From Patescibacteria group bacterium (GTDB taxonomy: Bacteria > Patescibacteriota > Patescibacteriia > 2-01-FULL-39-33), in NCBI GenBank assembly GCA_041662745.1, contig JBAZRV010000001.1:150001-182000 (forward strand): a stretch of DNA of 32,000 nt, written 5' to 3'. The stretch's first letter is position 1; every line of letters starts with the position of its first letter. This document shows positions 5,980 through 29,313 of this stretch, in pieces. Both the position numbers and the translations under genes were made by a program. The notes beneath the pieces are model-generated. The model was not told the DNA's origin and searched no databases. It saw only the letters and a list, made by a program, of their open reading frames with translations.

Positions 5980-6681
5980 TTAGCTAAAATCAGTCAACCT
6001 CGGCCAGTCAAAATCAAAAACCTCATCAGCAAAACCGAATTCCACGGCGTCTTCCGGCATTAAGAAAAAGTCTCCTTTTTCATCCATTTTTCTTTTCAGA
6101 AAACGGCGGATGCGATCCTCGCTCCATTTTAGGAATTTTTTCCCCTTTTTAGCCTTTTCAACATAGATATCCAACATTCTGCTGGTGCCGATTTTATCAA
6201 ATTCCACATTACTGGTGACTGTTTTAACTTCGCCACCGACATATAGTTGTCCATAATGGATCATAAAATAAGAGTCAGGCATCAGAACGCGCTTCTCAGC
6301 CGCCTGTATAATGATTGAAGACATGCTTCTGGCGTGGGTATAAGAAAGGATGGTTATGGGGAAAGGCATGGAACGTAAGACATTGTAGATAGCCATGCCT
6401 TCATGATAGTCTCCGCCGCAAGTATGCAGATGCACCAGGACTGGAGCAGTTTCAGAACGCAATCTTAGAAGATGTAGGTTTCTGATTACCCGGTTGGACA
6501 TCATATATTCAACACCCGGCTCTACGCCCGCATCTTCAGCTGTTAATAAATCAATATTGGTTCCACTGATCCAAAGCTGGCGATTTTGCAAATCAACTCC
6601 GAAATTATGCAGAGCGTCAAGGGCAAAAGCGTCGCCCATAGCGATACCGAATCTCTTGCGTCGTTGCACCGTATCATTCAT
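5980..6681 (-). CDS. ClpP-family (S14) serine peptidase-like protein, divergent (233 aa)
   Basis: PVLVHLHTCGGDYHEGMAIYNVL corresponds to ClpP INSPGG..aG.aIYD. HARSMSSIII corresponds to GxAASMG (Ser nucleophile). FMIHYG corresponds to MIHQP (His). The tail EDAVEFGFADEV corresponds to EA.eyGLiD.V. The N-terminal ~80 aa are atypical. Confidence 0.7.
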   Translation of the reverse strand: MNDTVQRRKRFGIAMGDAFALDALHNFGVDLQNRQLWISGTNIDLLTAEDAGVEPGVEYMMSNRVIRNLHLLRLRSETAPVLVHLHTCGGDYHEGMAIYNVLRSMPFPITILSYTHARSMSSIIIQAAEKRVLMPDSYFMIHYGQLYVGGEVKTVTSNVEFDKIGTSRMLDIYVEKAKKGKKFLKWSEDRIRRFLKRKMDEKGDFFLMPEDAVEFGFADEVFDFDWPRLTDFS

Positions 6682-14530: not shown

Positions 14531-17500
14531 ATGAGACCAAGACAGAGACACGAATCAATTGATGAAAGCGCTCCCGAAGCAGGTATCGGCGGATTAATCG
14601 CAACCGCCAAAGAGTCCGGTCATGTGGATTTGCGCTCTTTTTCTCTCGAGCGGTTGGCGCAATTGGCTCAATGGTATCGGGACAGTTTTGAATCTTTGGA
14701 TAAGGGAGATAGAGTGGAGTTTTTGGAACAATTCATGTCCCTGAATGAATTTGATGACCGGGAAAGCTTGGAGTTTATTAATAAAATAGATTTTGAATCA
14801 AGAGCCGAAATCGGTATTTTTATTTATCGCACGCTTGACGGTCTGAAGTTTATCCAAGCCTTTCAGGAATGCTGGCCGGCCATTGATTATGATCAAAGAA
14901 GCGAGATGGTCTTGTTTATTATTAAGAAGCGTCCCGCCTTGTTATTGATGATTGCTCCTTTTGTGAAATTAAGCCGGTGGTCCAAGGATGGTCGGTACGT
15001 TCTTTTGCCCAATTGGCAACATGAGAGGAGCAAGCCGGCTGACAGTCTGCAAAAAGAACGGTTTTCCGCTTATGAGAAAAGTTCCGAACTGATAGAGGGA
15101 TTATTGCGGTATTCGGAAAACCATCCTGAAGAAAACAGCAGTGCAGTCAGGGATAATTTGTCCAATATGAATCCGGCCTTGTTGATTCCTTATTTGGATC
15201 GGATAGAAAATTTGCATATTTTAAGCAAGGAGCAAATAAAAAATATCGCTACGGCTCCGCAAAGATTTTTGCCGGTAGATATTTTTTATACAACTGAAGA
15301 TCTTGAAGAAAAAAAAGCGATAATGAAGGAATTGGAGGCTTACCATCCAGATGAAGAAGAGAGGACGGCTCTGAAGTATCTTTATCCGACAGAAATAACC
15401 CCGCTTAAGTTAGGCGTTAAGCTGGCGAAAATAGAAAACCGCGCTCTTTTGAGGAAAACCCAGGCGCTGTTGAGTACGTTCCGGGATCGTCAGGGTAAAT
15501 TGGGCCAGGACAAATTGGATTATTTGTTCAAGTTAGTTGAAGACGGCGTTCCGGTATTCGCTCAAATTGATAATTTGGGCTTGTCAAAAACAGAGCTTGC
15601 GGCCTTGCTTAACCGTTGCGTTGAAGAAGAAGATTTTCCTTTCGGCGTCTTGCTTGACTTGAGCGATCTTAAAAAGTTTGTGGAATTCAGCCGTCGCACT
15701 GAGTCTGGGTCCGAAGCCGATCTGGAACAATCTTTAATTCGCCAGGTAATCAAAAATTTGCAAGAAAATGGCGAGTATGGCCGCGTAGGCAATGCCGTAG
15801 CCTTAAATGCCGAAGGATTTTTTTCGATTTTCAGAGTTAGCGAGCGGCAAAAAATATGGGATGCCGTAAATAAATTTGCCCCCGCTCTTTGGCTTAATAA
15901 TATAAATTATGCCATTAAACATGGGATTATGACATTTGATGAGCTGATCACGATTAGCTCCGGCGATGATCAAAATTTCATTAAAAAGTATCATAGATTA
16001 TTATATCACCTGCATCAATTGCGGCGGGAAGGCAAACCGGTAGAGGCGTCGGTAGAATCATTGGCCGGTAAAGCCAAATCGCTTTTTTCCGCCAACCCCT
16101 ACCTGTTTTTGCAAGCTGACAATTCTAAAATAGTGAAAAGCATTTATTCTCAAGCGGAACAGCAACAATTCATTACGGAACAGCTGACTGGGAATGTCAA
16201 TTCTTACTTTTTTGAGGCCTTATTGTCGTCTGAATATATTAATCAATATGCTGATGTTTGCCGGAGGCTTTTGGCCGAGAATGGCTATTTATTTGCCGTT
16301 GTAACGGAGTATTCCCATATCTGGGAAAGGGCTCGAAGGTTTGTTGAAACTAAAGAATTGATTGATTTGGTAATCCGTCATGCTGAAAGTATAAATTTTT
16401 CAACGTTATTTGATGATCTTTATTTAATTGCGGAATTAGGAAAAAAACCGGCCAAAGCGGCGGCTTTGGCGGAGCGTTTAACGGAATTGAATAATTTTTC
16501 GGCGTTAGCCCGATTGAACGAGGGAATCAATCGGTATGGCAAAGAAGAACAGAGATTGCAGAAGAAATTGCAATCTTTGCCGCAATTAAGTTATTTAAAT
16601 GATGAGGAAAAACAGAAAGAAGGCGAACGGCTTAAAAAAGAATTGGCCGAGCTGGTTGATAACGGCTATGAAGCGAATAATCGCAATTTAGAATTATTGG
16701 CCAGAGAGACGATAGAAATTTTAATTGAGGCCTGCGAGTCAAACAGGTTTTTGGTTTTTGATGAGAATATCTTAGTAACCGAGGGATTAGATGCGGCTAA
16801 ATATATCATTAGAGATTTGCCCGGCTATATAGCCGTTAATCCTGAAATATTATTTGAAGTGGATACTCGTCCGAATCGCGGGGAATCATCAATGTTGTGC
16901 GAAAACATCTTAGGTGAAGATAAGTATCATTTGCTTATACGAGAAAATGCGAGGCTTTTAGCCTTCAGGAAGAGTGAATATGGAGTCGCTTTTGACAATA
17001 AGTTTGTTCGGCCGGAGACATTGAAGCGGATTGAGGAAATGAACCCTTTAATTGGTTTGCTTGCTCAAAGCAAAACAGATTTGGATTATTACTCTGCGGT
17101 TTTAAGGCGGGTGATGGAAACGCCATTGGCGGGGCTATACCGAAAGGAATTGGAAAAAATAATCAAGGACAAGAAAGAAGCGGGTGAACCGAGATTGATT
17201 ACCGGATTTTTTGAAGCGGATAACGATTTTGAACAGCCGGCAAAAAAGATTTTTTTGCTCAACAGCCATGCGGCGATCAGAGCGCATGCCGGCTGGCTGA
17301 TGTCTCTGCCGGAAAATCAGCAAACCGAGCTTGTAGGCTTATTGGAATTTTCTCTGCTCAATGGTTTGGTTTTTTTGGGCAAAATATTGCAATCAGAGGA
17401 CTTCAGCGAAGTTAAGAAGGAGTTGCAAGGCGGTATTGAAGAGTTTGTTTTATATGTTTTCGGCCTGGAAGATCTGCCAGAATTGTCTTTTGACAATTTA

Positions 17501-18760
17501 TCAGTTGATTCAACTCGCGCCTTGATGATTTATTATTACAAGTCTTGCAAAAAAGATCGTTATCAGGAGTTGGCCTTTAAGGATTTCATTATTCATGTTT
17601 TGAACGGCACCTATGGTTTTTGGCGTGCTTGGGATAGCAACATTGACCCTGAAGACAAACTTTCACAGCTTAATAAATTGAAGGAGAAAAAGCTAATACC
17701 CGAGGGTTTGACCTTGGATCAATATCGGCAATGGCTTGATGAGGAAAAGTTTAAGTTTGAAGAAACTCTCGCTTATGATATTTCCGATCTGAAGGCGGGT
17801 ATTGGCGATATAATCGGTGATGCCGTGGCTGACGGCCATATTACTGAAGAATCCCTTGATTTATCCGGTATTGATGAAAAATACAACACCCTAATTGAGC
17901 CGTTGAATATTTTTACCAATCGCCAGAGAGAATTGCGCGAATTGTCTAAAACGGCGGGGTTGACTGAGGAGCGTCAGGCAGAGTACAAGGAGTTGGCTCG
18001 TCAGATAGCCGATTATCGCAAAAAACACGAGACTGAGATGACCGCCATCTTAGCGCTTAAATATTTGTCCGGCTTAAAAAATTTAACCGCCCATGAGTTG
18101 GAAAATCAAGTATTGATTTTAAAGAATAAAAATCAGGTGCCGTTAAAAAAGGCCCTTAGTTTGTTGGCAGAGCATTTTGGAGAAAAATCCCCTGATTTTA
18201 TAGGTGATATCAATCGTATCCGCCAATTGCTTGCCGGCGGTTTTGAGCAGATTTATGGCGGTAAAAAAGTTTCAAGAGGAAAGCTTTACTTGACTGACAG
18301 GGTTGATTTGGAAACCTATGTCTTTATCGGAGAAAGGCCTGTCGCCTCTTGCCAAAATTACGATGGCCGTAGCGGCCAGAATGCCGGACTGTTATCTTAT
18401 TTGTCCGACCCCAATGTTAAGATTATTCAAATATACAATGAGAGCGGGGGTATTATCGCTCGCAGCGTTATGCGTTTAGTTGAAGATGATGATAATAAAC
18501 CGCAATTATTCATTGAGAGAACATATTCAGCCAATCCGCATCCCAAAATTAATGAAGCCATTGTTAATTTTGCCAAGCTTAAAGCGGAAAAAATGAATGT
18601 CGGTTTATATGCCTCTGTTTCTGTCGGGTCCAATCAAGGAACGGCAGCGGCCGATCTTCATAATAATAATAGCCGCAGCGCTTATGTTTATACTGATGCG
18701 GCCGGCGGTAGAATTCCCAAGGGGCGTTTTACTATCAGGAGCGCCAAGTTAATCCGCTGA
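14531..18760 (+). CDS. giant hypothetical protein (1409 aa), no recognised family
   Basis: A single uninterrupted 4.2-kb ORF with protein-like composition. No signal peptide, TM segment, P-loop or HExxH seen. Helix-favouring, E/K/L-rich. Distinct C-terminal ~170 aa (FIGERPVASCQNYDGRSGQNAGLLSYLSDPNVKIIQIYNESGGIIARSVMRL). TGA stop. Confidence 0.8.
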   Translation: MRPRQRHESIDESAPEAGIGGLIATAKESGHVDLRSFSLERLAQLAQWYRDSFESLDKGDRVEFLEQFMSLNEFDDRESLEFINKIDFESRAEIGIFIYRTLDGLKFIQAFQECWPAIDYDQRSEMVLFIIKKRPALLLMIAPFVKLSRWSKDGRYVLLPNWQHERSKPADSLQKERFSAYEKSSELIEGLLRYSENHPEENSSAVRDNLSNMNPALLIPYLDRIENLHILSKEQIKNIATAPQRFLPVDIFYTTEDLEEKKAIMKELEAYHPDEEERTALKYLYPTEITPLKLGVKLAKIENRALLRKTQALLSTFRDRQGKLGQDKLDYLFKLVEDGVPVFAQIDNLGLSKTELAALLNRCVEEEDFPFGVLLDLSDLKKFVEFSRRTESGSEADLEQSLIRQVIKNLQENGEYGRVGNAVALNAEGFFSIFRVSERQKIWDAVNKFAPALWLNNINYAIKHGIMTFDELITISSGDDQNFIKKYHRLLYHLHQLRREGKPVEASVESLAGKAKSLFSANPYLFLQADNSKIVKSIYSQAEQQQFITEQLTGNVNSYFFEALLSSEYINQYADVCRRLLAENGYLFAVVTEYSHIWERARRFVETKELIDLVIRHAESINFSTLFDDLYLIAELGKKPAKAAALAERLTELNNFSALARLNEGINRYGKEEQRLQKKLQSLPQLSYLNDEEKQKEGERLKKELAELVDNGYEANNRNLELLARETIEILIEACESNRFLVFDENILVTEGLDAAKYIIRDLPGYIAVNPEILFEVDTRPNRGESSMLCENILGEDKYHLLIRENARLLAFRKSEYGVAFDNKFVRPETLKRIEEMNPLIGLLAQSKTDLDYYSAVLRRVMETPLAGLYRKELEKIIKDKKEAGEPRLITGFFEADNDFEQPAKKIFLLNSHAAIRAHAGWLMSLPENQQTELVGLLEFSLLNGLVFLGKILQSEDFSEVKKELQGGIEEFVLYVFGLEDLPELSFDNLSVDSTRALMIYYYKSCKKDRYQELAFKDFIIHVLNGTYGFWRAWDSNIDPEDKLSQLNKLKEKKLIPEGLTLDQYRQWLDEEKFKFEETLAYDISDLKAGIGDIIGDAVADGHITEESLDLSGIDEKYNTLIEPLNIFTNRQRELRELSKTAGLTEERQAEYKELARQIADYRKKHETEMTAILALKYLSGLKNLTAHELENQVLILKNKNQVPLKKALSLLAEHFGEKSPDFIGDINRIRQLLAGGFEQIYGGKKVSRGKLYLTDRVDLETYVFIGERPVASCQNYDGRSGQNAGLLSYLSDPNVKIIQIYNESGGIIARSVMRLVEDDDNKPQLFIERTYSANPHPKINEAIVNFAKLKAEKMNVGLYASVSVGSNQGTAAADLHNNNSRSAYVYTDAAGGRIPKGRFTIRSAKLIR

Positions 18761-22902: not shown

Positions 22903-23520
22903 TCACTTTTTTATTTCCTGGCCGGCCTGCTGGCGTCCGGGTTGCATCAATTGCCGTAATTTGTCTTGATTTGTGCCCAACTCCTCCCAGGTGAAAATTC
23001 CCTTGGCCTGCAGGGTTATGATCTGTTTAAAAATAGCATAGCCGGATCGCGGGTCGACAGGCGGCTTTCGGTCAAATTTTTTGACAGTCTGTTGGCAGAG
23101 ATCAATCATTCGCGTTTTCACTGCTTGAGCTGTTGTCGGATCAACCCGGCAGAGCGCCGGCCATTGGATCAGGTTACTGGCCATGGCATCGCAGAGGTAT
23201 TGGTGGTACTGTGGTTGACGTTTTTTCTGACAGTGATAATTAAAGGCCGTCTGGATGGCCTGATCGGCAATCCGGTCTTTTTGCGGACCGTTAGCTTGAT
23301 TAAAATCACGGCGTAATCGTCTCATTTCCGCTCCGAAAGCGGGACTGAAGCCGCAATAATCGTTAGCGCCGTTAAGCCGGCCGGGGCCATTGGCGTTAAG
23401 TTGCTGTTGAAAGCCAAGAAGTTGTTGCCGATAGTAATTATTTAACCATAAGACGATTGTTGCCAGCAGAATCAATGAAACCATGCCGAGCGTTGTAAGG
23501 AATTTTTGTGTTTTAGCCAT
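22903..23520 (-). CDS. hypothetical N-terminally anchored or secreted protein, Gln/Cys-rich (205 aa)
   Basis: Track ORF trimmed to the ATG at 23520 after TGAGGTAATC. TM/signal anchor LTTLGMVSLILLATIVLWL. Several Cys. TGA stop. Confidence 0.55.
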   Translation of the reverse strand: MAKTQKFLTTLGMVSLILLATIVLWLNNYYRQQLLGFQQQLNANGPGRLNGANDYCGFSPAFGAEMRRLRRDFNQANGPQKDRIADQAIQTAFNYHCQKKRQPQYHQYLCDAMASNLIQWPALCRVDPTTAQAVKTRMIDLCQQTVKKFDRKPPVDPRSGYAIFKQIITLQAKGIFTWEELGTNQDKLRQLMQPGRQQAGQEIKK

Positions 23521-23622
23521 GATTACCTCATTTTTTTTGGTTGAGAAGTTGATTTCAGGATTCAATCGCGGTATAAAGAGCTTGAAAAGCCAGTTTATCA
23601 TTTTTATTTTCAGTTGTCAATT

Positions 23623-24674: not shown

Positions 24675-24692
24675 TTGTTTAAATTTAAACAA
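24675..24692. promoter_or_regulatory. 18-bp perfect palindrome, candidate operator upstream of the Ubl-operon promoter
   Basis: TTGTTTAAATTTAAACAA equals its reverse complement. It ends 23 bp upstream of the -35 at 24716. Confidence 0.35.
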
Positions 24693-24715
24693 GCTTATTT
24701 TTAATATATTGGCGC

Positions 24716-24744
24716 TTGACAATAATGACTTATTTTAGTAAGAT
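24716..24744 (+). promoter_or_regulatory. sigma70-like promoter of the E2/JAB/E1/Ubl operon
   Basis: TTGACA (24716-24721), 17-nt spacer, TAAGAT (24739-24744). About 100-nt leader, then AAAGGAG before the ATG at 24850. Confidence 0.6.
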
Positions 24745-24849
24745 GATAAATCAAGTTTTTGCAGTTAATGGCAGGTTATTACTTGATAACCGCACTTTGA
24801 CAAAATAATAAAAACTTAAAATGGCTTAAACGGCAAAGGAGAAAAGCTA

Positions 24850-26286
24850 ATGCCTGACACATCAGCCGCCAGTAATATTGAGTCCAATGATAAAAGGAGC
24901 GGATATAGGGTTTCTACACAAAATTGGGATGGTTTTAATCGCAGGGGGTTTAGGACAATTGCCAGAGAAGTCTTATTGCCGATTGTTCAAAAAGATATCG
25001 TTATCAGCGTTCCTCGGCAGACAGAAGATTTTTCTAATAATGGTAAATTCAATATTAAAATTTTGTCTTCGCCACAAGGTTTGCCGAAGACCAATATGCC
25101 GAAAGAGATTTTTGGTCATAGAGTTTTTTATGATCTTAATGATTCATATACGGCTACTGGCTTGGGAGAAGCTATTATTGATGAGTCAACCGGTTATGCG
25201 GTAGCTGAGTTATTCCCCGACAATCTTTATATTCATTATGATATTTGTCACAGCGATGAACTTTATGAACTGAAAATTTTTAGGTTGCTTTTAAAGAAGG
25301 TAGCGGCTTTTTTGCAGTTATTGCCAGCTGAGATGGCCCAGCGGCGCAAACAGCAGCAGGAGAAAATTTTGATTGCTAATCGGGAGAGATATGCGGCGTT
25401 GCTATCCTCATTGATAAACAGTGGATCAAGAGCTGCGGATGCAGAACGAATTACTGAAATGGAAGAAAAAATCAGGGATCAGCGGATTGCTTTGACGCAA
25501 GCATTATTTGAATTGGCAGCGGCCAAACGGAAGCAGGCCGATAGTATCGGCTCTAAAGGTCAAACTGAAATACTGGCAGAGTTTGAGCGATTAAGGTCTA
25601 TGTCCAAGGTACGGGATGTGGCTGTTAGCGATGATGGGACTATCAGCGTAACTACTAATGTCTTATATTGTCGCAACAAAGCCACGGGATTGCTATACGA
25701 GATTGGCGCCTTCCGGTTGGATATACGGCTTAAGTTGGTAGGGGATTATTCGGAGCCCGAAGATTATCTTTCCTTTACCAATATTACTAGGACAATCGGC
25801 GGTTATCTCAGTGATCACTCGCACCATCCTCACATTTTTAAACCAAAAGATTTTTGCCTGGGCAATGCCGAAGAGATTGTCCCCGATCTCTTGTCTAATT
25901 TAGAAATTCGGGCTCTGGTTGGCGTCATGATTCAATTTATTGAGTCAGTTAACCCTCGTGATGACGCCGGTGTAGGGATATTTCTTTGGCCGTTAGCGCC
26001 ATTAGAAATGCAATCTCCGGAAGCGCAGGACAGATTGAAGGATTTATGGTCGCAAGAGGATAATCCTTTCAAAAACGTTGATGCTCCATTAAGAACGTTC
26101 GTTCGAACAGCGCAAATCATGCCTAAGGGTTATGATATCGCGTTTGACTGCGGTTGGCGGAAATGGCATCTGAACGGTGCACTGGCATATACCAGAGAGA
26201 TAGCAACATGGTTAGGCGTTGATGAGGCTTGGGCTTATGTTATTATGGCGAATTATTTTTCTGTTGCATCATCACAAATTACTTGA
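24850..26286 (+). CDS. E2 (UBC-fold)-like conjugating enzyme candidate with a long N-terminal extension and coiled coil (478 aa)
   Basis: Residues ~255-370: strand run ISVTTNVLY / LLYEIGAFRLDIRL, then HHPHIFKPKDFCLG (HPN-like flap plus Cys336, codon 25855-25857), then helices EEIVPDLLSNLEIRALVGVMIQFIESV. Residues ~158-250 are heptad-like (QRRKQQQEKILIANRERYAALL...). Residues 1-150 and 380-478 are unassigned. The operon context supplies E1, JAB and Ubl. Confidence 0.55.
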   Translation: MPDTSAASNIESNDKRSGYRVSTQNWDGFNRRGFRTIAREVLLPIVQKDIVISVPRQTEDFSNNGKFNIKILSSPQGLPKTNMPKEIFGHRVFYDLNDSYTATGLGEAIIDESTGYAVAELFPDNLYIHYDICHSDELYELKIFRLLLKKVAAFLQLLPAEMAQRRKQQQEKILIANRERYAALLSSLINSGSRAADAERITEMEEKIRDQRIALTQALFELAAAKRKQADSIGSKGQTEILAEFERLRSMSKVRDVAVSDDGTISVTTNVLYCRNKATGLLYEIGAFRLDIRLKLVGDYSEPEDYLSFTNITRTIGGYLSDHSHHPHIFKPKDFCLGNAEEIVPDLLSNLEIRALVGVMIQFIESVNPRDDAGVGIFLWPLAPLEMQSPEAQDRLKDLWSQEDNPFKNVDAPLRTFVRTAQIMPKGYDIAFDCGWRKWHLNGALAYTREIATWLGVDEAWAYVIMANYFSVASSQIT

Positions 26287-26340
26287 TCATCCAACCAATA
26301 TGGTAATTGTAAGGTTTTAACAGTAAAGGAGAAACCAATA

Positions 26341-27081
26341 GTGAAGAAGATTAAACGTGGTCCGGCTGGTAGTTCTGCGAACGGGCCGTCCAGGTCCAGA
26401 GCAAAATTTTTCCGACCGCACGCCTTTCGGAACGAGGTGTCCTTGATTGGCGGTGAACCATTGATCATAGTAACTCCGGAAGTCCAGGAAGGAATGTATC
26501 ATATTGCCGATCAAGCCAGAGGAGAGGCCGGCTGGCTGGGAACAGTTTCCGAACTTCCTGAAAGAACTTATGTTATTGATGAGCTTTTCATTTTTAAGCA
26601 GAGAGTTGACGCGCTTACCAATACCTTAACCAGAGAAGGGTTGTCCGCGGTAGGCATGGAAATACTTAGACGTCCGGATGGCATGGAAGTTTGGAATCGG
26701 GTAAGGTTCTGGGGACATAGCCATGGAACCCTATCAACCGCTCCGTCGTTTCAAGATAAACAGCAATTTTCGTTATTGGGTAATTCGGGTTTCCCCTACT
26801 TTATTAGAGGGATAATTAATCGTTTAGGCCGGATGGAATTTTCTATCATGTATTATGATTCGGGAATTCTGATAGAAGACGTTCCTTGGCAGATTTCTAA
26901 CACTATAACCGACAATCAGGCTGAGTTTATCGCTAATCAATTAGCAGAAAAAGTCACTTGGGTTGATCAGAGACGCGTTGGCAAAGGCGCTATAGGAGGT
27001 TTTTTTGACGGTTTATTGGTTTCTGGTTTGCCGGGAGATCTGACTGTGGAGGAGATGTTAGTGTTGGGAGGGGGGTCATGA
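26341..27081 (+). CDS. JAB/MPN+ (JAMM) metalloprotease (246 aa)
   Basis: GTG start after AAGGAG. Complete JAMM signature: GE62AGWLG ... H126-S-H128-GTLSTAP-S136-FQ-D139 (E...HxHx7Sx2D). Confidence 0.8.
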   Translation: MKKIKRGPAGSSANGPSRSRAKFFRPHAFRNEVSLIGGEPLIIVTPEVQEGMYHIADQARGEAGWLGTVSELPERTYVIDELFIFKQRVDALTNTLTREGLSAVGMEILRRPDGMEVWNRVRFWGHSHGTLSTAPSFQDKQQFSLLGNSGFPYFIRGIINRLGRMEFSIMYYDSGILIEDVPWQISNTITDNQAEFIANQLAEKVTWVDQRRVGKGAIGGFFDGLLVSGLPGDLTVEEMLVLGGGS

Positions 27082-27776
27082 GTATTAATCCGACGCGTCA
27101 CTTGCAAGTATTTTCTCCTCAAGAGTTTAGCAAGACCGGTTACTTAGTTGATGTGATTGGTTGCGGAGCTACCGGTTCGCATATAGTTTTGTCCTTAGCC
27201 AGATTGGGTATTACTAATATTCGCGTTTGGGATTTTGACACGGTTCAAGCCCACAACATTCCTAATCAAGTGTTTGGCTTGAAGGACATCAATCGTCCAA
27301 AAGTAGCGGCGATACATGATGCGGTTGCGGCGGCGACTGGTACGAGCATAGATATACGCGATGTTAGGTTTGACGGCGGCCCCGGCCAAGAATTGGGCGA
27401 TATTGTGTTCCTCTTGACAGACACTATGGCCTCGCGTAGAATGATCTGGGAGAGTTCCATTAAATTTAATATAAATATTCGGTTAATGGTTGAAACGCGC
27501 TTAGGCGCTGAATCAGGTAAGATTTATACCATTAATCCTAGCCTTCTCGGTCACGTCCAGGGTTGGGAAAGCACTTTATGTGAAGATCGGGTTGCGGCTC
27601 CTAGCGCTTGTGGGGCCATTACTTCAGTCGGGCCGACAGCGGAAATCGTTTCCGGAATCGCCGTGTGGCAATTAATGGACTGGTTTAGAATCAAACAGGG
27701 AAAGGAGGTAGAGCTGCCTAATGAAGTATTTTTTTCTGTTCGGCCTTGGATGATGCTGACTCGGTATTTTAGGTAG
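27078..27776 (+). CDS. ThiF/MoeB-type E1-like adenylyltransferase, minimal (232 aa)
   Basis: VDVIGCGATGSHIVLSLARLG (GxGxxG), RVWDFDTVQAHNIPNQ, VFLLTDTMASR, ACGAITSVGPTAEIVSGIAV. Cys168 and Cys178 lie in the crossover-loop region. The ATG overlaps the JAB stop (ATGA). Confidence 0.8.
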   Translation: MSINPTRHLQVFSPQEFSKTGYLVDVIGCGATGSHIVLSLARLGITNIRVWDFDTVQAHNIPNQVFGLKDINRPKVAAIHDAVAAATGTSIDIRDVRFDGGPGQELGDIVFLLTDTMASRRMIWESSIKFNINIRLMVETRLGAESGKIYTINPSLLGHVQGWESTLCEDRVAAPSACGAITSVGPTAEIVSGIAVWQLMDWFRIKQGKEVELPNEVFFSVRPWMMLTRYFR

Positions 27777-27791
27777 TAGTTGTTATTATGG

Positions 27792-27814
27792 CAAAATCGT
27801 GTGTTGCGATTTTG
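27792..27814 (+). other. 8-bp stem hairpin in the E1-Ubl intergenic spacer (no T-run)
   Basis: CAAAATCG-TGTGTTG-CGATTTTG, read directly. Followed by TCGATGC, so it is not a canonical terminator. Confidence 0.5.
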
Positions 27815-27853
27815 TCGATGCAAACCAGTTGCAACCGATAAGGAGCAATAGCT

Positions 27854-28099
27854 ATGGAAGACAAGGGATTCATTCTCGTTAAAGTCGGAAAATTGCCGGG
27901 CGTAATCAAGGAAGTCGGCCTGAGTGATTGCGACGGCGAGCGAACGATCGCCAAGGCGTTGAAGGGCGCTGAATTGGAAAAAGAAGAGGGGTACGAGGTT
28001 CGCGTCAATAATGACGTTGTCGCGGACGACGATGTTGCCGATTATGAATTGTCCGATGGCGATATCGTTATCCTGGTTGAGGACATCGTCGGCAATTAA
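27854..28099 (+). CDS. ubiquitin-like beta-grasp protein (ThiS/MoaD/Ubl-like, 81 aa) ending Gly-Asn
   Basis: RBS AAGGAG. Size, alternating strand pattern (FILVKVGKLPG), and the C-terminal ELSDGDIVILVEDIVGN match the l.dGD.v.i...v.GG tail of sulfur-carrier and Ubl proteins. Operon context also supports the call. Confidence 0.65.
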   Translation: MEDKGFILVKVGKLPGVIKEVGLSDCDGERTIAKALKGAELEKEEGYEVRVNNDVVADDDVADYELSDGDIVILVEDIVGN

Positions 28100-28140
28100 A
28101 GCCGGCCTGCCTCGAAAGTACTTTTAGTAATTTATTAATC

Positions 28141-28167
28141 AGCCGGGTAGCTTATCCGGCTTTTTTA
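28141..28167 (+). terminator. rho-independent terminator of the Ubl operon
   Basis: AGCCGG-GTAGCTTAT-CCGGCT followed by TTTTTAT. Confidence 0.75.
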
Positions 28168-28188
28168 TTTTAATAATTTTATCATCCT

Positions 28189-28259: not shown

Positions 28260-28333
28260 GGGCAATTAGCTCAGTTGGTTAGAGCGTCTCGTTGACGTCG
28301 AGAAGGTCAGTGGTTCGAATCCACTATTGCCCA
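28260..28333 (+). tRNA. tRNA-Val (anticodon GAC), no encoded CCA
   Basis: GGGCAAT-TA-GCTC-AGTTGGTTA-GAGC-G-TCTCG-TTGACGT-CGAGA-AGGTC-AGTGG-TTCGAAT-CCACT-ATTGCCC-A. Confidence 0.9.
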
Positions 28334-28383
28334 CATAAGTACCTGCATAAAATAAAAACGGCCTAAAGCCGATTTTTTATTTT

Positions 28384-29195: not shown

Positions 29196-29240
29196 GATAC
29201 GGTCTCCTCTTGGTTGTGTTTGAAAGAACTTTGTTGATAG

Positions 29241-29313
29241 TAGGCCTGGATGGATTTGAACCATCGACATCTACCTTATAAGGGTAGCGCTCTAACCCCT
29301 GAGCTACAGGCCC
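29241..29313 (-). tRNA. tRNA-Ile with anticodon UAU, no encoded CCA
   Basis: Minus strand GGGCCTG-TA-GCTC-AGGGGTTA-GAGC-G-CTACC-CTTATAA-GGTAG-ATGTC-GATGG-TTCAAAT-CCATC-CAGGCCT-A. The body closely resembles bacterial tRNA-Ile(GAU). The anticodon loop reads C-T-TAT-A-A. Confidence 0.8.

Follow-up and report, generated by a model that had tools for sequence, protein, structure and literature searches.

The subject of this study is a four-gene cassette in a 32,000-nucleotide stretch of the genome of a Patescibacteria group bacterium (assembly GCA_041662745.1, contig JBAZRV010000001.1, positions 150,001 to 182,000 of the forward strand), which will be referred to in its full length as the window. 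Four open reading frames (ORFs) lie on the same strand between positions 24850 and 28099 (+), in the gene order E2-JAB-E1-Ubl, and encode an E2-like protein (E2L), a JAB/JAMM metalloprotease, a minimal ThiF-type E1 and the precursor of a ubiquitin-like protein (Ubl). Taken together, they probably form a complete and self-contained pathway of Ubl conjugation, whose role is most likely the tagging of endogenous proteins and not an anti-phage function of the Bil type. The ORF list agrees with an initial annotation, made from the letters of the window alone, in the four ORFs, their coordinates and the overlap of the E1 start codon with the JAB stop codon:

24850..26286 (+), E2L gene, an ORF of 478 amino acids (aa) with a Shine-Dalgarno sequence, AAGGAG, at 24837-24842 before its ATG
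26341..27081 (+), JAB/JAMM metalloprotease gene, an ORF of 246 aa with a GTG start
27078..27776 (+), gene of the minimal ThiF-type E1, an ORF of 232 aa whose ATG overlaps the JAB stop (ATGA)
27854..28099 (+), pro-Ubl gene, an ORF of 81 aa with the C-terminus EDIVGN

Regarding the first of these proteins, its predicted fold, profile alignments and conserved residues identify E2L as a divergent E2 with an invariant His in place of the Asn of the canonical HPN motif; it forms an E2 family of its own. Its AlphaFold2 (AF2) model, built on an alignment of 88 sequences, has a pLDDT of 82.9 and is composed of four parts, the third of which carries the catalytic motif:

24907..25239 (+), N-terminal beta-rich domain, aa ~20-130, of unrecognised fold, with a pLDDT mostly >85 in the AF2 model
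25262..25542 (+), coiled coil, aa ~138-231, long helices in the AF2 model
25561..25992 (+), UBC/E2-like domain, aa ~238-381, from AF2, Foldseek and hhalign
25825..25863 (+), catalytic motif HPHIFKPKDFCLG, H326-P327-H328 ... C336-L-G338, from the translation
26017..26283 (+), C-terminal extension, aa ~390-478, from the alignment, modelled by AF2 with low confidence (pLDDT 43-78)

In the model, the UBC domain begins with a helix (residues 238-249), continues with four strands and ends with further helices, which is the order of elements in the UBC fold, and its nine best Foldseek matches in the PDB are all E2 enzymes (UbcH7, UbcH8), found with probabilities of 0.69-0.99, eight of them >=0.80. 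The alignment of the domain in the 88 sequences was also compared by hhalign with four canonical E2s, one of which, UBE2D2, was confirmed against the PDB, and gave E=9e-5 over 113 columns, with aPHV..G.aCLGN placed on HPNI..G.vCL (HPNI..G.ICL in UBE2D2) and SVNxDD on PNPxDP. The N-terminal domain, which served as the control, stayed at background level, with probabilities <=1.2% against E2, Ubl, JAB and E1 alike, and had no convincing Foldseek match. Among the 88 homologues, H328 is present in all and P327, C336 and G338 in 87 each, and Cys336 lies eight residues past the HPN-type motif (H326-P-H328-x7-C336). The single E2L sequence has no match in Pfam (E<=1), PADLOC, NCBIfam, PHROGs or, by phmmer, the PDB, and the 88 family members match no Pfam family at E<=0.1, UQ_con and Prok-E2_A-E included. 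Relatives carry the N-terminal domain in 1-5 tandem copies, many of them in 2-5, and the C-terminal extension is common, in the alignment, only to the Buchananbacteria orthologue.

The second gene encodes a protease with all five residues of the JAMM zinc site (E62, H126, H128, S136 and D139), which are invariant in 11 diverse homologues:

26716..26757 (+), JAMM zinc-site motif HSHGTLSTAPSFQD, H126-S-H128-x7-S136-x2-D139, from the translation, with E62 at 26524-26526

The Pfam model Prok-JAB matches the window protein at 0.057, below its cut-off, and is weakly matched by 10 of the 14 members of the JAB family, the best of them at 0.0025, again below cut-off; the family profile finds no match in the PDB by sequence. 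The AF2 model, built on 14 database homologues and with a pLDDT of 77, is matched by Foldseek to BRCC36, Rpn11, CSN5, the bacterial Bil deubiquitinase (DUB) 8tyx and PfJAMM1, with E-values down to 1.3e-8 and 190 matches at <=1e-3. A public gene call puts the start of this gene 32 codons downstream (214 aa, P0162), omitting 26341-26436; we favour the GTG at 26341, because A21, F24 and H27, which lie upstream of the public start, are conserved.

The E1 matches Pfam ThiF (PF00899) over residues 25-203 as one domain, with E=7e-18 and 65 bits against a curated cut-off of 28.1, and the profile of its family (11 homologues) aligns end to end with the 251-aa ThiF of E. coli at 4.6e-10. G28, G30, G33, D52, D54, N60, K75, D115, R120 and Cys178 are invariant in the 11 homologues, and two of these sites lie as follows:

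27159-27179 (+), nucleotide-binding GxGxxGS of the E1, invariant in homologues
27609..27611 (+), Cys178 of the E1 (PSACGAI), candidate thioester site

In the alignment with the PDB entry, Cys178 falls on the crossover-loop Cys of E. coli ThiF, and the E1 has neither a second adenylation domain nor an inserted Cys domain nor a CxxC zinc site. The family profile also matches BubCD (3.8e-7) and Cap2 (1.7e-6) in the PDB. In PADLOC, all of the 25 listed out of 32 matches are partial ones to Cap2 "E1-E2" models, covering E1 residues ~19-95, and among the PHROGs phrog_15670 matches the E1.

For the Ubl, sequence comparison supports a beta-grasp protein of the ThiS/MoaD/SAMP2 class. The window protein scores 20.5 bits with Pfam ThiS, just below the cut-off of 22.5, and the family profile matches PF1061/SAMP2 of P. 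furiosus at 2e-5, followed by MoaD, TtuB and ThiS, with the terminal Gly aligned; against ubiquitin itself, hhalign gives a probability of 0.4%. The C-terminus is the hallmark of the family:

28091..28096 (+), Gly80-Asn81, the family-wide G-N junction and probable JAB processing site, from the translation

This junction is found in 84 of the 86 full-length Ubl domains from 67 distinct proteins, the internal junctions of poly-Ubl genes included. Exactly at the Asn stop 40 of these 84 domains, while the others run on with variable residues; a Ubl from a viral contig ends RGGCL, and one member ends KAN. In 16 distinct genes, 2-4 Ubl repeats are arranged head to tail, each ending G-N, and some of the junctions abut directly (as in the fourfold gene of locus L084, ...KKVKGN|ALTVRV...), others being separated by short linkers. 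Judged by their sequences, these genes look like polyubiquitin precursors, and repeats that each end G-N must be cut apart, which implies proteolytic release of the monomers. In some Saccharibacteria loci a second small conserved ORF is located between the E1 and Ubl genes (L002/L012, 9803-10159 in L002 coordinates; L015, 9188-9505); it has no Pfam match and a beta-grasp-like C-terminal pattern, DYVIxxGDxxxL, with no terminal Gly-Asn, and may encode a non-conjugatable partner with a Ubl fold.

The reading of the four proteins in the initial annotation is borne out by these results. The motifs quoted there and the EDIVGN end agree with the translations, the UBC core that it had located in the 478-aa protein is found at residues ~238-381, and the protease with a complete JAMM motif and the ThiF-type E1 are recovered, while the beta-grasp class of the 81-aa Ubl is supported by the sequence match of its family to SAMP2/PF1061. 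Its guess of a host with a small genome fits as well, since the host belongs to the Patescibacteria.

The cassette is a member of a large family, named mostly from Saccharibacteria and other Patescibacteria, that we found described nowhere: full-text literature searches, with subscription journals outside the coverage, turned up no description of it in Patescibacteria, Saccharibacteria or elsewhere, and a term search of the Southlakia genetics paper gave no mention. An exhaustive profile search, in which relatives of E2L were counted as representative clusters, returned 2727 clusters at E<=1e-3, a tier that the coiled coil could inflate, 1804 at <=1e-10 and 650 at <=1e-30, and overturned the impression of a tiny family left by a word-indexed search with its 4-5 relatives. 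A scan of species-representative genomes gave 11 loci, namely six from Saccharibacteria, one from Buchananbacteria, one from Parcubacteria and three from other metagenome-assembled genomes. In addition, a scan of metagenomes with an E1 pattern gave 507 stretches, the best 80 of which were taken as metagenome loci and had all their ORFs scored with hidden Markov models of the four families.

The genes of the cassette co-occur strictly. In well-flanked metagenome loci, chosen by the E1 alone, E2L, JAB and E1 are present in 19/19 and all four genes in 18/19; the JAB gene directly precedes that of the E1 in 65 of 69 metagenome loci, and all family genes are on one strand in every one of the 80. 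The commonest orders are E2L-JAB-E1-Ubl (21 loci), which is the window type, and Ubl-E2L-E2L-JAB-E1 (12 loci), which will be called the sister subtype. The second E2L of the latter has ~290 aa and a degenerate PH...C.G motif, with the His changed to R, Y, N or Q and the Cys sometimes gone, and resembles a ubiquitin E2 variant (UEV). Moreover, a gene for a Clp/Hsp100 double-ring AAA+ protein (Pfam AAA, AAA_lid_9, AAA_2 and ClpB_D2-small) lies directly 3' of the E1 gene and on the same strand in eight loci of the sister subtype, with one further case nearby. One 33.6-kb metagenome contig, Ga0163149_10001206, has two cassettes of different subtypes (L080, L081).

As for the position of the cassette in the window, a pattern scan places the following sites at its two ends:

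24716..24744 (+), promoter-like site TTGACA-17-TAAGAT, upstream of the E2L gene, a 10/12 match
28141..28171 (+), terminator-like hairpin at 28141-28161 (stem of 9 bp, 5 GC) and T-run

The promoter and the terminator that had been proposed to bracket the operon were both found in this way, but they are plausible only, because such sites are not significantly enriched over shuffled sequences, the region having 11 promoter-like sites against 8.0+/-2.6 expected and seven terminator-like ones against 3.8+/-2.3. A tRNA-Val gene is present downstream of the Ubl gene, at 28260-28334, as had been noted, and an Rfam scan detected tRNAs and no other RNA elements. The surroundings of the cassette include genes for IMPDH, ClpP, a CDP-alcohol phosphatidyltransferase, methyltransferases, a HAD hydrolase, a NAD-dependent epimerase, tRNA-Val, tRNA-Ile and the CCA-adding enzyme; despite an E2L identity of only 52%, this set of neighbours recurs, both tRNAs included, in the Buchananbacteria locus (L001). 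Near the cassette in the window or in the annotated related loci we saw no defence, nuclease or restriction genes and no CapH/CapP or WYL regulators, and the cassette has no GC anomaly and no att-like repeats or integration scars at the tRNA-Val gene or in its flanks. An integrated mobile element at tRNA-Val was considered and rejected on the absence of an att-like repeat and of a GC anomaly and on the synteny with L001. In the same manner, the tRNA genes and the gene of the CCA-adding enzyme adjoin the cassette in the window, L001 and L011, and this linkage was rejected as a functional clue because the adjacency is not kept beyond the close relatives of the window. Regarding other relatives, one is located between recR and the ribosomal-protein/secY cluster, another adjoins serS and dprA, and three Saccharibacteria loci have upstream genes in common. 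A gene for a TrmB-like helix-turn-helix regulator of ~260 aa recurs near the cassette in Saccharibacteria loci, and is found in L006/L007, L011, L015, L016 (2-3 kb upstream of E2L), L045 and, at 16742-17482, L001; its product may regulate the operon, or the gene may simply be a frequent neighbour.

Some further features of the window should be mentioned. The tRNA-Ile, at 29240-29313 (-), has the anticodon UAU and is conserved with the Buchananbacteria relative (L001 12583-12656). In most bacteria AUA is read by a lysidine-modified CAU tRNA, and the UAU gene may bear on AUA decoding in these lineages. The largest gene of the window, a 1409-aa ORF at 14531-18760 (+), has no Pfam match at E<=0.01. 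A 232-aa ORF on the opposite strand (22903-23601, -), hydrophobic in an N-terminal segment, lies 1.2 kb upstream of the cassette; its sub-threshold match to Herpes_teg_N, which corresponds to the UL36 deubiquitinase domain (E=0.007 and 16.4 bits, with the cut-off at 25), is probably due to chance. Finally, a ClpP-family protease gene at 5980-6681 (-), ~18 kb from the cassette, is mentioned solely in view of the Clp/Hsp100 ATPase gene of the sister subtype.

The four protein identities with their catalytic residues, the strict co-occurrence of the genes, the Gly-Asn ends and the poly-Ubl genes are the basis on which we propose the following pathway. The Ubl would be made as a pro-form whose cap is Asn81 in the window and, in relatives, additional Ubl repeats or tails of another kind. 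Cleavage after Gly80 by the JAMM protease would expose a reactive C-terminus and would also free the monomers of poly-Ubls; this step is proposed by analogy with the Bil DUB, for which pre-processing of its Ubl to expose the C-terminal glycine was shown experimentally (PMC10557695). The E1, probably a homodimer like ThiF, MoeB and Uba5, would then adenylate Gly80 and probably take the Ubl as a thioester onto Cys178 in its crossover loop. Non-canonical E1s with a Cys in this loop are known. From there the Ubl would be handed to Cys336 in the UBC domain of E2L, where His328 occupies the position of the canonical HPN Asn. Because no E3 is encoded, E2L is proposed to select the targets by means of its N-terminal domain and coiled coil, and would thus be E2 and E3 in one. 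The Ubl would end on amines of the target, and the same JAB may take it off again.

The weakest step is the one from this chemistry to a role. The most likely one is endogenous protein tagging, for regulation or for unfolding and turnover, which we favour because of the housekeeping, syntenic location of the cassette and the Clp/Hsp100 gene in the operon of the sister subtype; moreover, a cellular role is suggested by the retention of four tagging genes, at a housekeeping location, in a small genome. We also regard it as rather doubtful, if attractive, that Ubl tagging feeds the Clp/Hsp100 unfoldase as a third independent solution beside ubiquitin-proteasome and Pup-Mpa, with the window operon as a minimal form. 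Several observations weigh against our interpretation. The Clp/Hsp100 gene has no counterpart in the subtype of the window, so that carrying its role over is an extrapolation. For the E2 domain, the Foldseek E-values are modest (6.5e-3 to 0.09, none <=1e-3), and HMMER profiles of the E2L family find no E2 in Pfam or the PDB, only coiled-coil proteins. The invariant Asn after Gly is left unexplained by simple capping, because any residue would cap; it may reflect a strict P1' requirement of the JAB. E2L diverges faster than the E1 (30-38% versus 50-58% identity to the Saccharibacteria copies), the copy number of its N-terminal domain is variable, and the occurrence of the cassette on a viral contig, with analogues in cultured phages, fits a role in conflict at least as well.

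Such a role, that is, an anti-phage or other conflict system that works like Bil and in which the variable N-terminal domains of E2L recognise phage targets, is kept alive by the viral copies, the variable number of N-terminal domains and the faster divergence of E2L, although we consider it unlikely. The four activities are identical to those of Bil (PMC10557695, PMC11601596), whose E2s were proposed to pick their targets directly, without an E3 (PMC11601596), and the E2L N-terminal domain, besides varying in number, diverges faster than the E1. A full cassette is located on the 193-kb IMG/VR contig UViG_3300027896_000010 (L017 5479-10539), with two E2L paralogues, a 369-aa JAB, an E1 and the Ubl with the RGGCL end, beside genes that match phage sigma-factor and phosphoesterase families; a fold search of BFVD returned uncharacterised phage proteins at a probability of ~1, and two cassettes share one metagenome contig, as described above. 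In addition, the Xanthomonas jumbo phage PhiXhv-12 (L018 2238-6488) encodes an 892-aa protein with HPHM-x10-LCLGS after a coiled coil, and the Flavobacterium phage FpV4 (L019 2569-5639) a protein with a JAMM motif, in both cases beside a ThiF-like gene annotated as "thiamine biosynthesis protein"; no Ubl was seen in either locus, and these genes are probably distant analogues of the cassette. Against a conflict system speak the lack of PADLOC defence models for E2L, JAB and Ubl, an E1 without IAD and CYS, the defining domains of Bil E1s, the lack of CapH/CapP, a WYL regulator, a nuclease, a restriction gene or another defence gene close by, a location that is syntenic down to 52% E2L identity and among three Saccharibacteria loci, and the lack of integration scars around the cassette.

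Two other explanations would assign a different chemistry to the same genes. The Ubl could be a sulfur carrier, as in ThiS/ThiF, MoaD/MoeB, TtuB/TtuC, CysO/Mec+ and QbsE/QbsD, adenylated by the E1 and converted to a thiocarboxylate, for example for tRNA thiolation, while the JAB would only trim its C-terminus and the "E2" would relay sulfur or act as a scaffold. By sequence, the nearest relatives of the Ubl (SAMP2, MoaD, TtuB and ThiS) and of the E1 (ThiF) point in this direction, trimming of a sulfur-carrier precursor by a JAMM protease is known for QbsE/QbsD and CysO/Mec+, and tRNA genes and the CCA-adding enzyme gene are beside the cassette in three loci, an adjacency, however, that is lost beyond the close relatives of the window. 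We hold a sulfur-carrier role, which the initial annotation had already thought unlikely, to be very improbable, because none of the annotated or recurrent neighbours is a sulfur-partner gene, because the partner protein combines a UBC fold with a Cys that is invariant at the place of the E2 cysteine, and because genes for poly-Ubls, for an E2 paralogue that has degenerated and for a Clp unfoldase do not fit sulfur transfer. The cassette is not embedded in a sulfur-transfer operon: ThiG/ThiH, MoaE, TtuA/NcsA, rhodanese and cysteine desulfurase are absent from the annotated genes of the window and five related loci, and sulfur-partner genes from the 14 neighbour clusters that recur most often in the 80 metagenome loci, the remaining neighbours being unannotated. 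Furthermore, the Ubl ends G-N, not G-G. The least probable explanation is that the mature Ubl ends at Asn81 and that the E1 performs MccB-like chemistry on this residue, adenylation and then succinimide formation, with a non-canonical linkage or a nucleotide-modified protein as the product. MccB, a member of the E1 family whose target residue is a C-terminal Asn, ranks second among the PDB matches of the E1 profile (1.5e-9), the Asn after Gly is invariant, and the 40 domains that stop at Asn have nothing to trim. The match is restricted, however, to profile positions 16-98, the Rossmann part that both enzymes share, a peptide-clamp domain is missing from the E1, the RGGCL and KAN ends lack the Gly-Asn, such chemistry would leave no task for an E2 and its catalytic Cys, and in characterised Ubl precursor systems the JAMM protease cuts directly after the terminal Gly, as the Bil DUB does (PMC10557695).

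In bacteria, ubiquitin-type conjugation has so far been represented by a few, sparsely distributed anti-phage systems (CBASS Cap2, Bil and Bub), and the cassette defines another and abundant family, named mostly in Patescibacteria, which have tiny genomes and a poorly known biology. Several of its features are new for bacteria. The family presents traits thought typical of eukaryotic ubiquitin, namely capped poly-Ubl genes, an inactive E2 paralogue and a JAMM protease beside an AAA+ unfoldase, and pairs them with a minimal ThiF-like E1 and a SAMP2-like tag; as such, it is a simple and testable model for how sulfur-carrier machinery becomes protein-tagging machinery. For protein regulation in Patescibacteria, and possibly in their phages, it provides a new point of access as well.

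Among the known systems, type II CBASS (Cap2/Cap3) and Bub (6E/DUF6527) have in common with the cassette a bacterial E1/E2(/JAB) conjugation machinery. Type II CBASS relies on an E2-E1 fusion that acts on a CD-NTase; the cassette has neither a CD-NTase nor a Cap2 fusion, its E1 and E2 being separate genes, and its exclusion from this type in the initial annotation was correct. Bub is characterised by Ubl-E2, JAB-E1 or E2-E1 fusions, a DUF6527 serine protease and oxyester chemistry, and none of these components is found in the cassette.

Bil was the system to which the initial annotation had likened the cassette, as an atypical copy with the same anti-phage composition, naming the E1 BilC and the JAB BilD; the names were reversed, BilA being the Ubl, BilB the E2, BilC the JAB/DUB and BilD the E1 (PMC10557695, PMC11601596). 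Like Bil, the cassette encodes its Ubl, E2, JAB and E1 as separate genes of a single operon and has no E3, and its JAB is structurally close to the Bil DUB (8tyx_B, E=1.7e-6) and probably pre-processes the Ubl, as reported for Bil (PMC10557695). Bil E1s, however, have IAD-AAD-CYS domains (PMC11601596), and that of the cassette is a single ThiF domain of 232 aa; the cassette E2, with 478 aa, comprises an N-terminal domain, a coiled coil and a UBC-like domain with (A/H)PH-x7-C and has no sequence relation to that of Bil; and the cassette Ubl is one SAMP2-like beta-grasp ending G-N. The gene order of Bil is Ubl-E2-DUB-E1, in a defence-island or CapH/CapP context (PMC10557695), and that of the cassette is E2-JAB-E1-Ubl, with no match of E2L, JAB or Ubl to a defence model and with housekeeping synteny in place of a defence island. 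The multi-beta-grasp Ubls of Bil and Bub are reported as intact multi-domain proteins that form homodimers and filaments (PMC11601603), from which the poly-Ubl genes, with the proteolytic release of monomers that they imply, differ. Since it departs from Bil in E1 architecture, sequence models, gene order and context, the cassette is not a member of Bil, let alone a single deviant copy of it, but belongs to a large separate family with hallmarks of its own; a Bil E1 was likewise not among the 60 best PDB profile matches of the E1, in a comparison that did not extend to direct alignment with Bil sequences.

The resemblance to eukaryotic ubiquitin is one of gene organization. It consists of head-to-tail poly-Ubl genes with an extra residue that caps the last repeat, of a putatively active E2 accompanied, in one subtype, by a degenerate paralogue, as in eukaryotic E2/UEV pairs, and of an operon that joins a JAMM protease with a predicted AAA+ unfoldase, which recalls Rpn11 with its AAA+ unfoldases. 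Yeast UBI4 likewise ends in an extra Asn. Unlike the eukaryotic system, the cassette has a Ubl of ThiS/SAMP-like sequence, a minimal E1 and no RING or HECT E3, and the unfoldase of the sister subtype is a Clp/Hsp100 protein, not a proteasomal ATPase or Cdc48.

The components themselves lead to the archaeal SAMP/UbaA/JAMM1 and Thermus TtuB/TtuC systems. The best solved relative of the Ubl is P. furiosus SAMP2, the JAB superposes on PfJAMM1, including its complex with SAMP2 (5lda, TM-score on target 0.79), and the E1 is of the same small ThiF/MoeB type. The SAMP and TtuB/TtuC systems have no E2, double as sulfur carriers and use Ubls that end Gly-Gly, whereas the cassette has an always-linked protein of E2 fold and poly-Ubl precursors. 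By sequence and structure, the Ubl, E1 and JAB of the cassette are closest to the archaeal trio SAMP2/UbaA/JAMM1, to which the cassette adds the E2 that the trio lacks.

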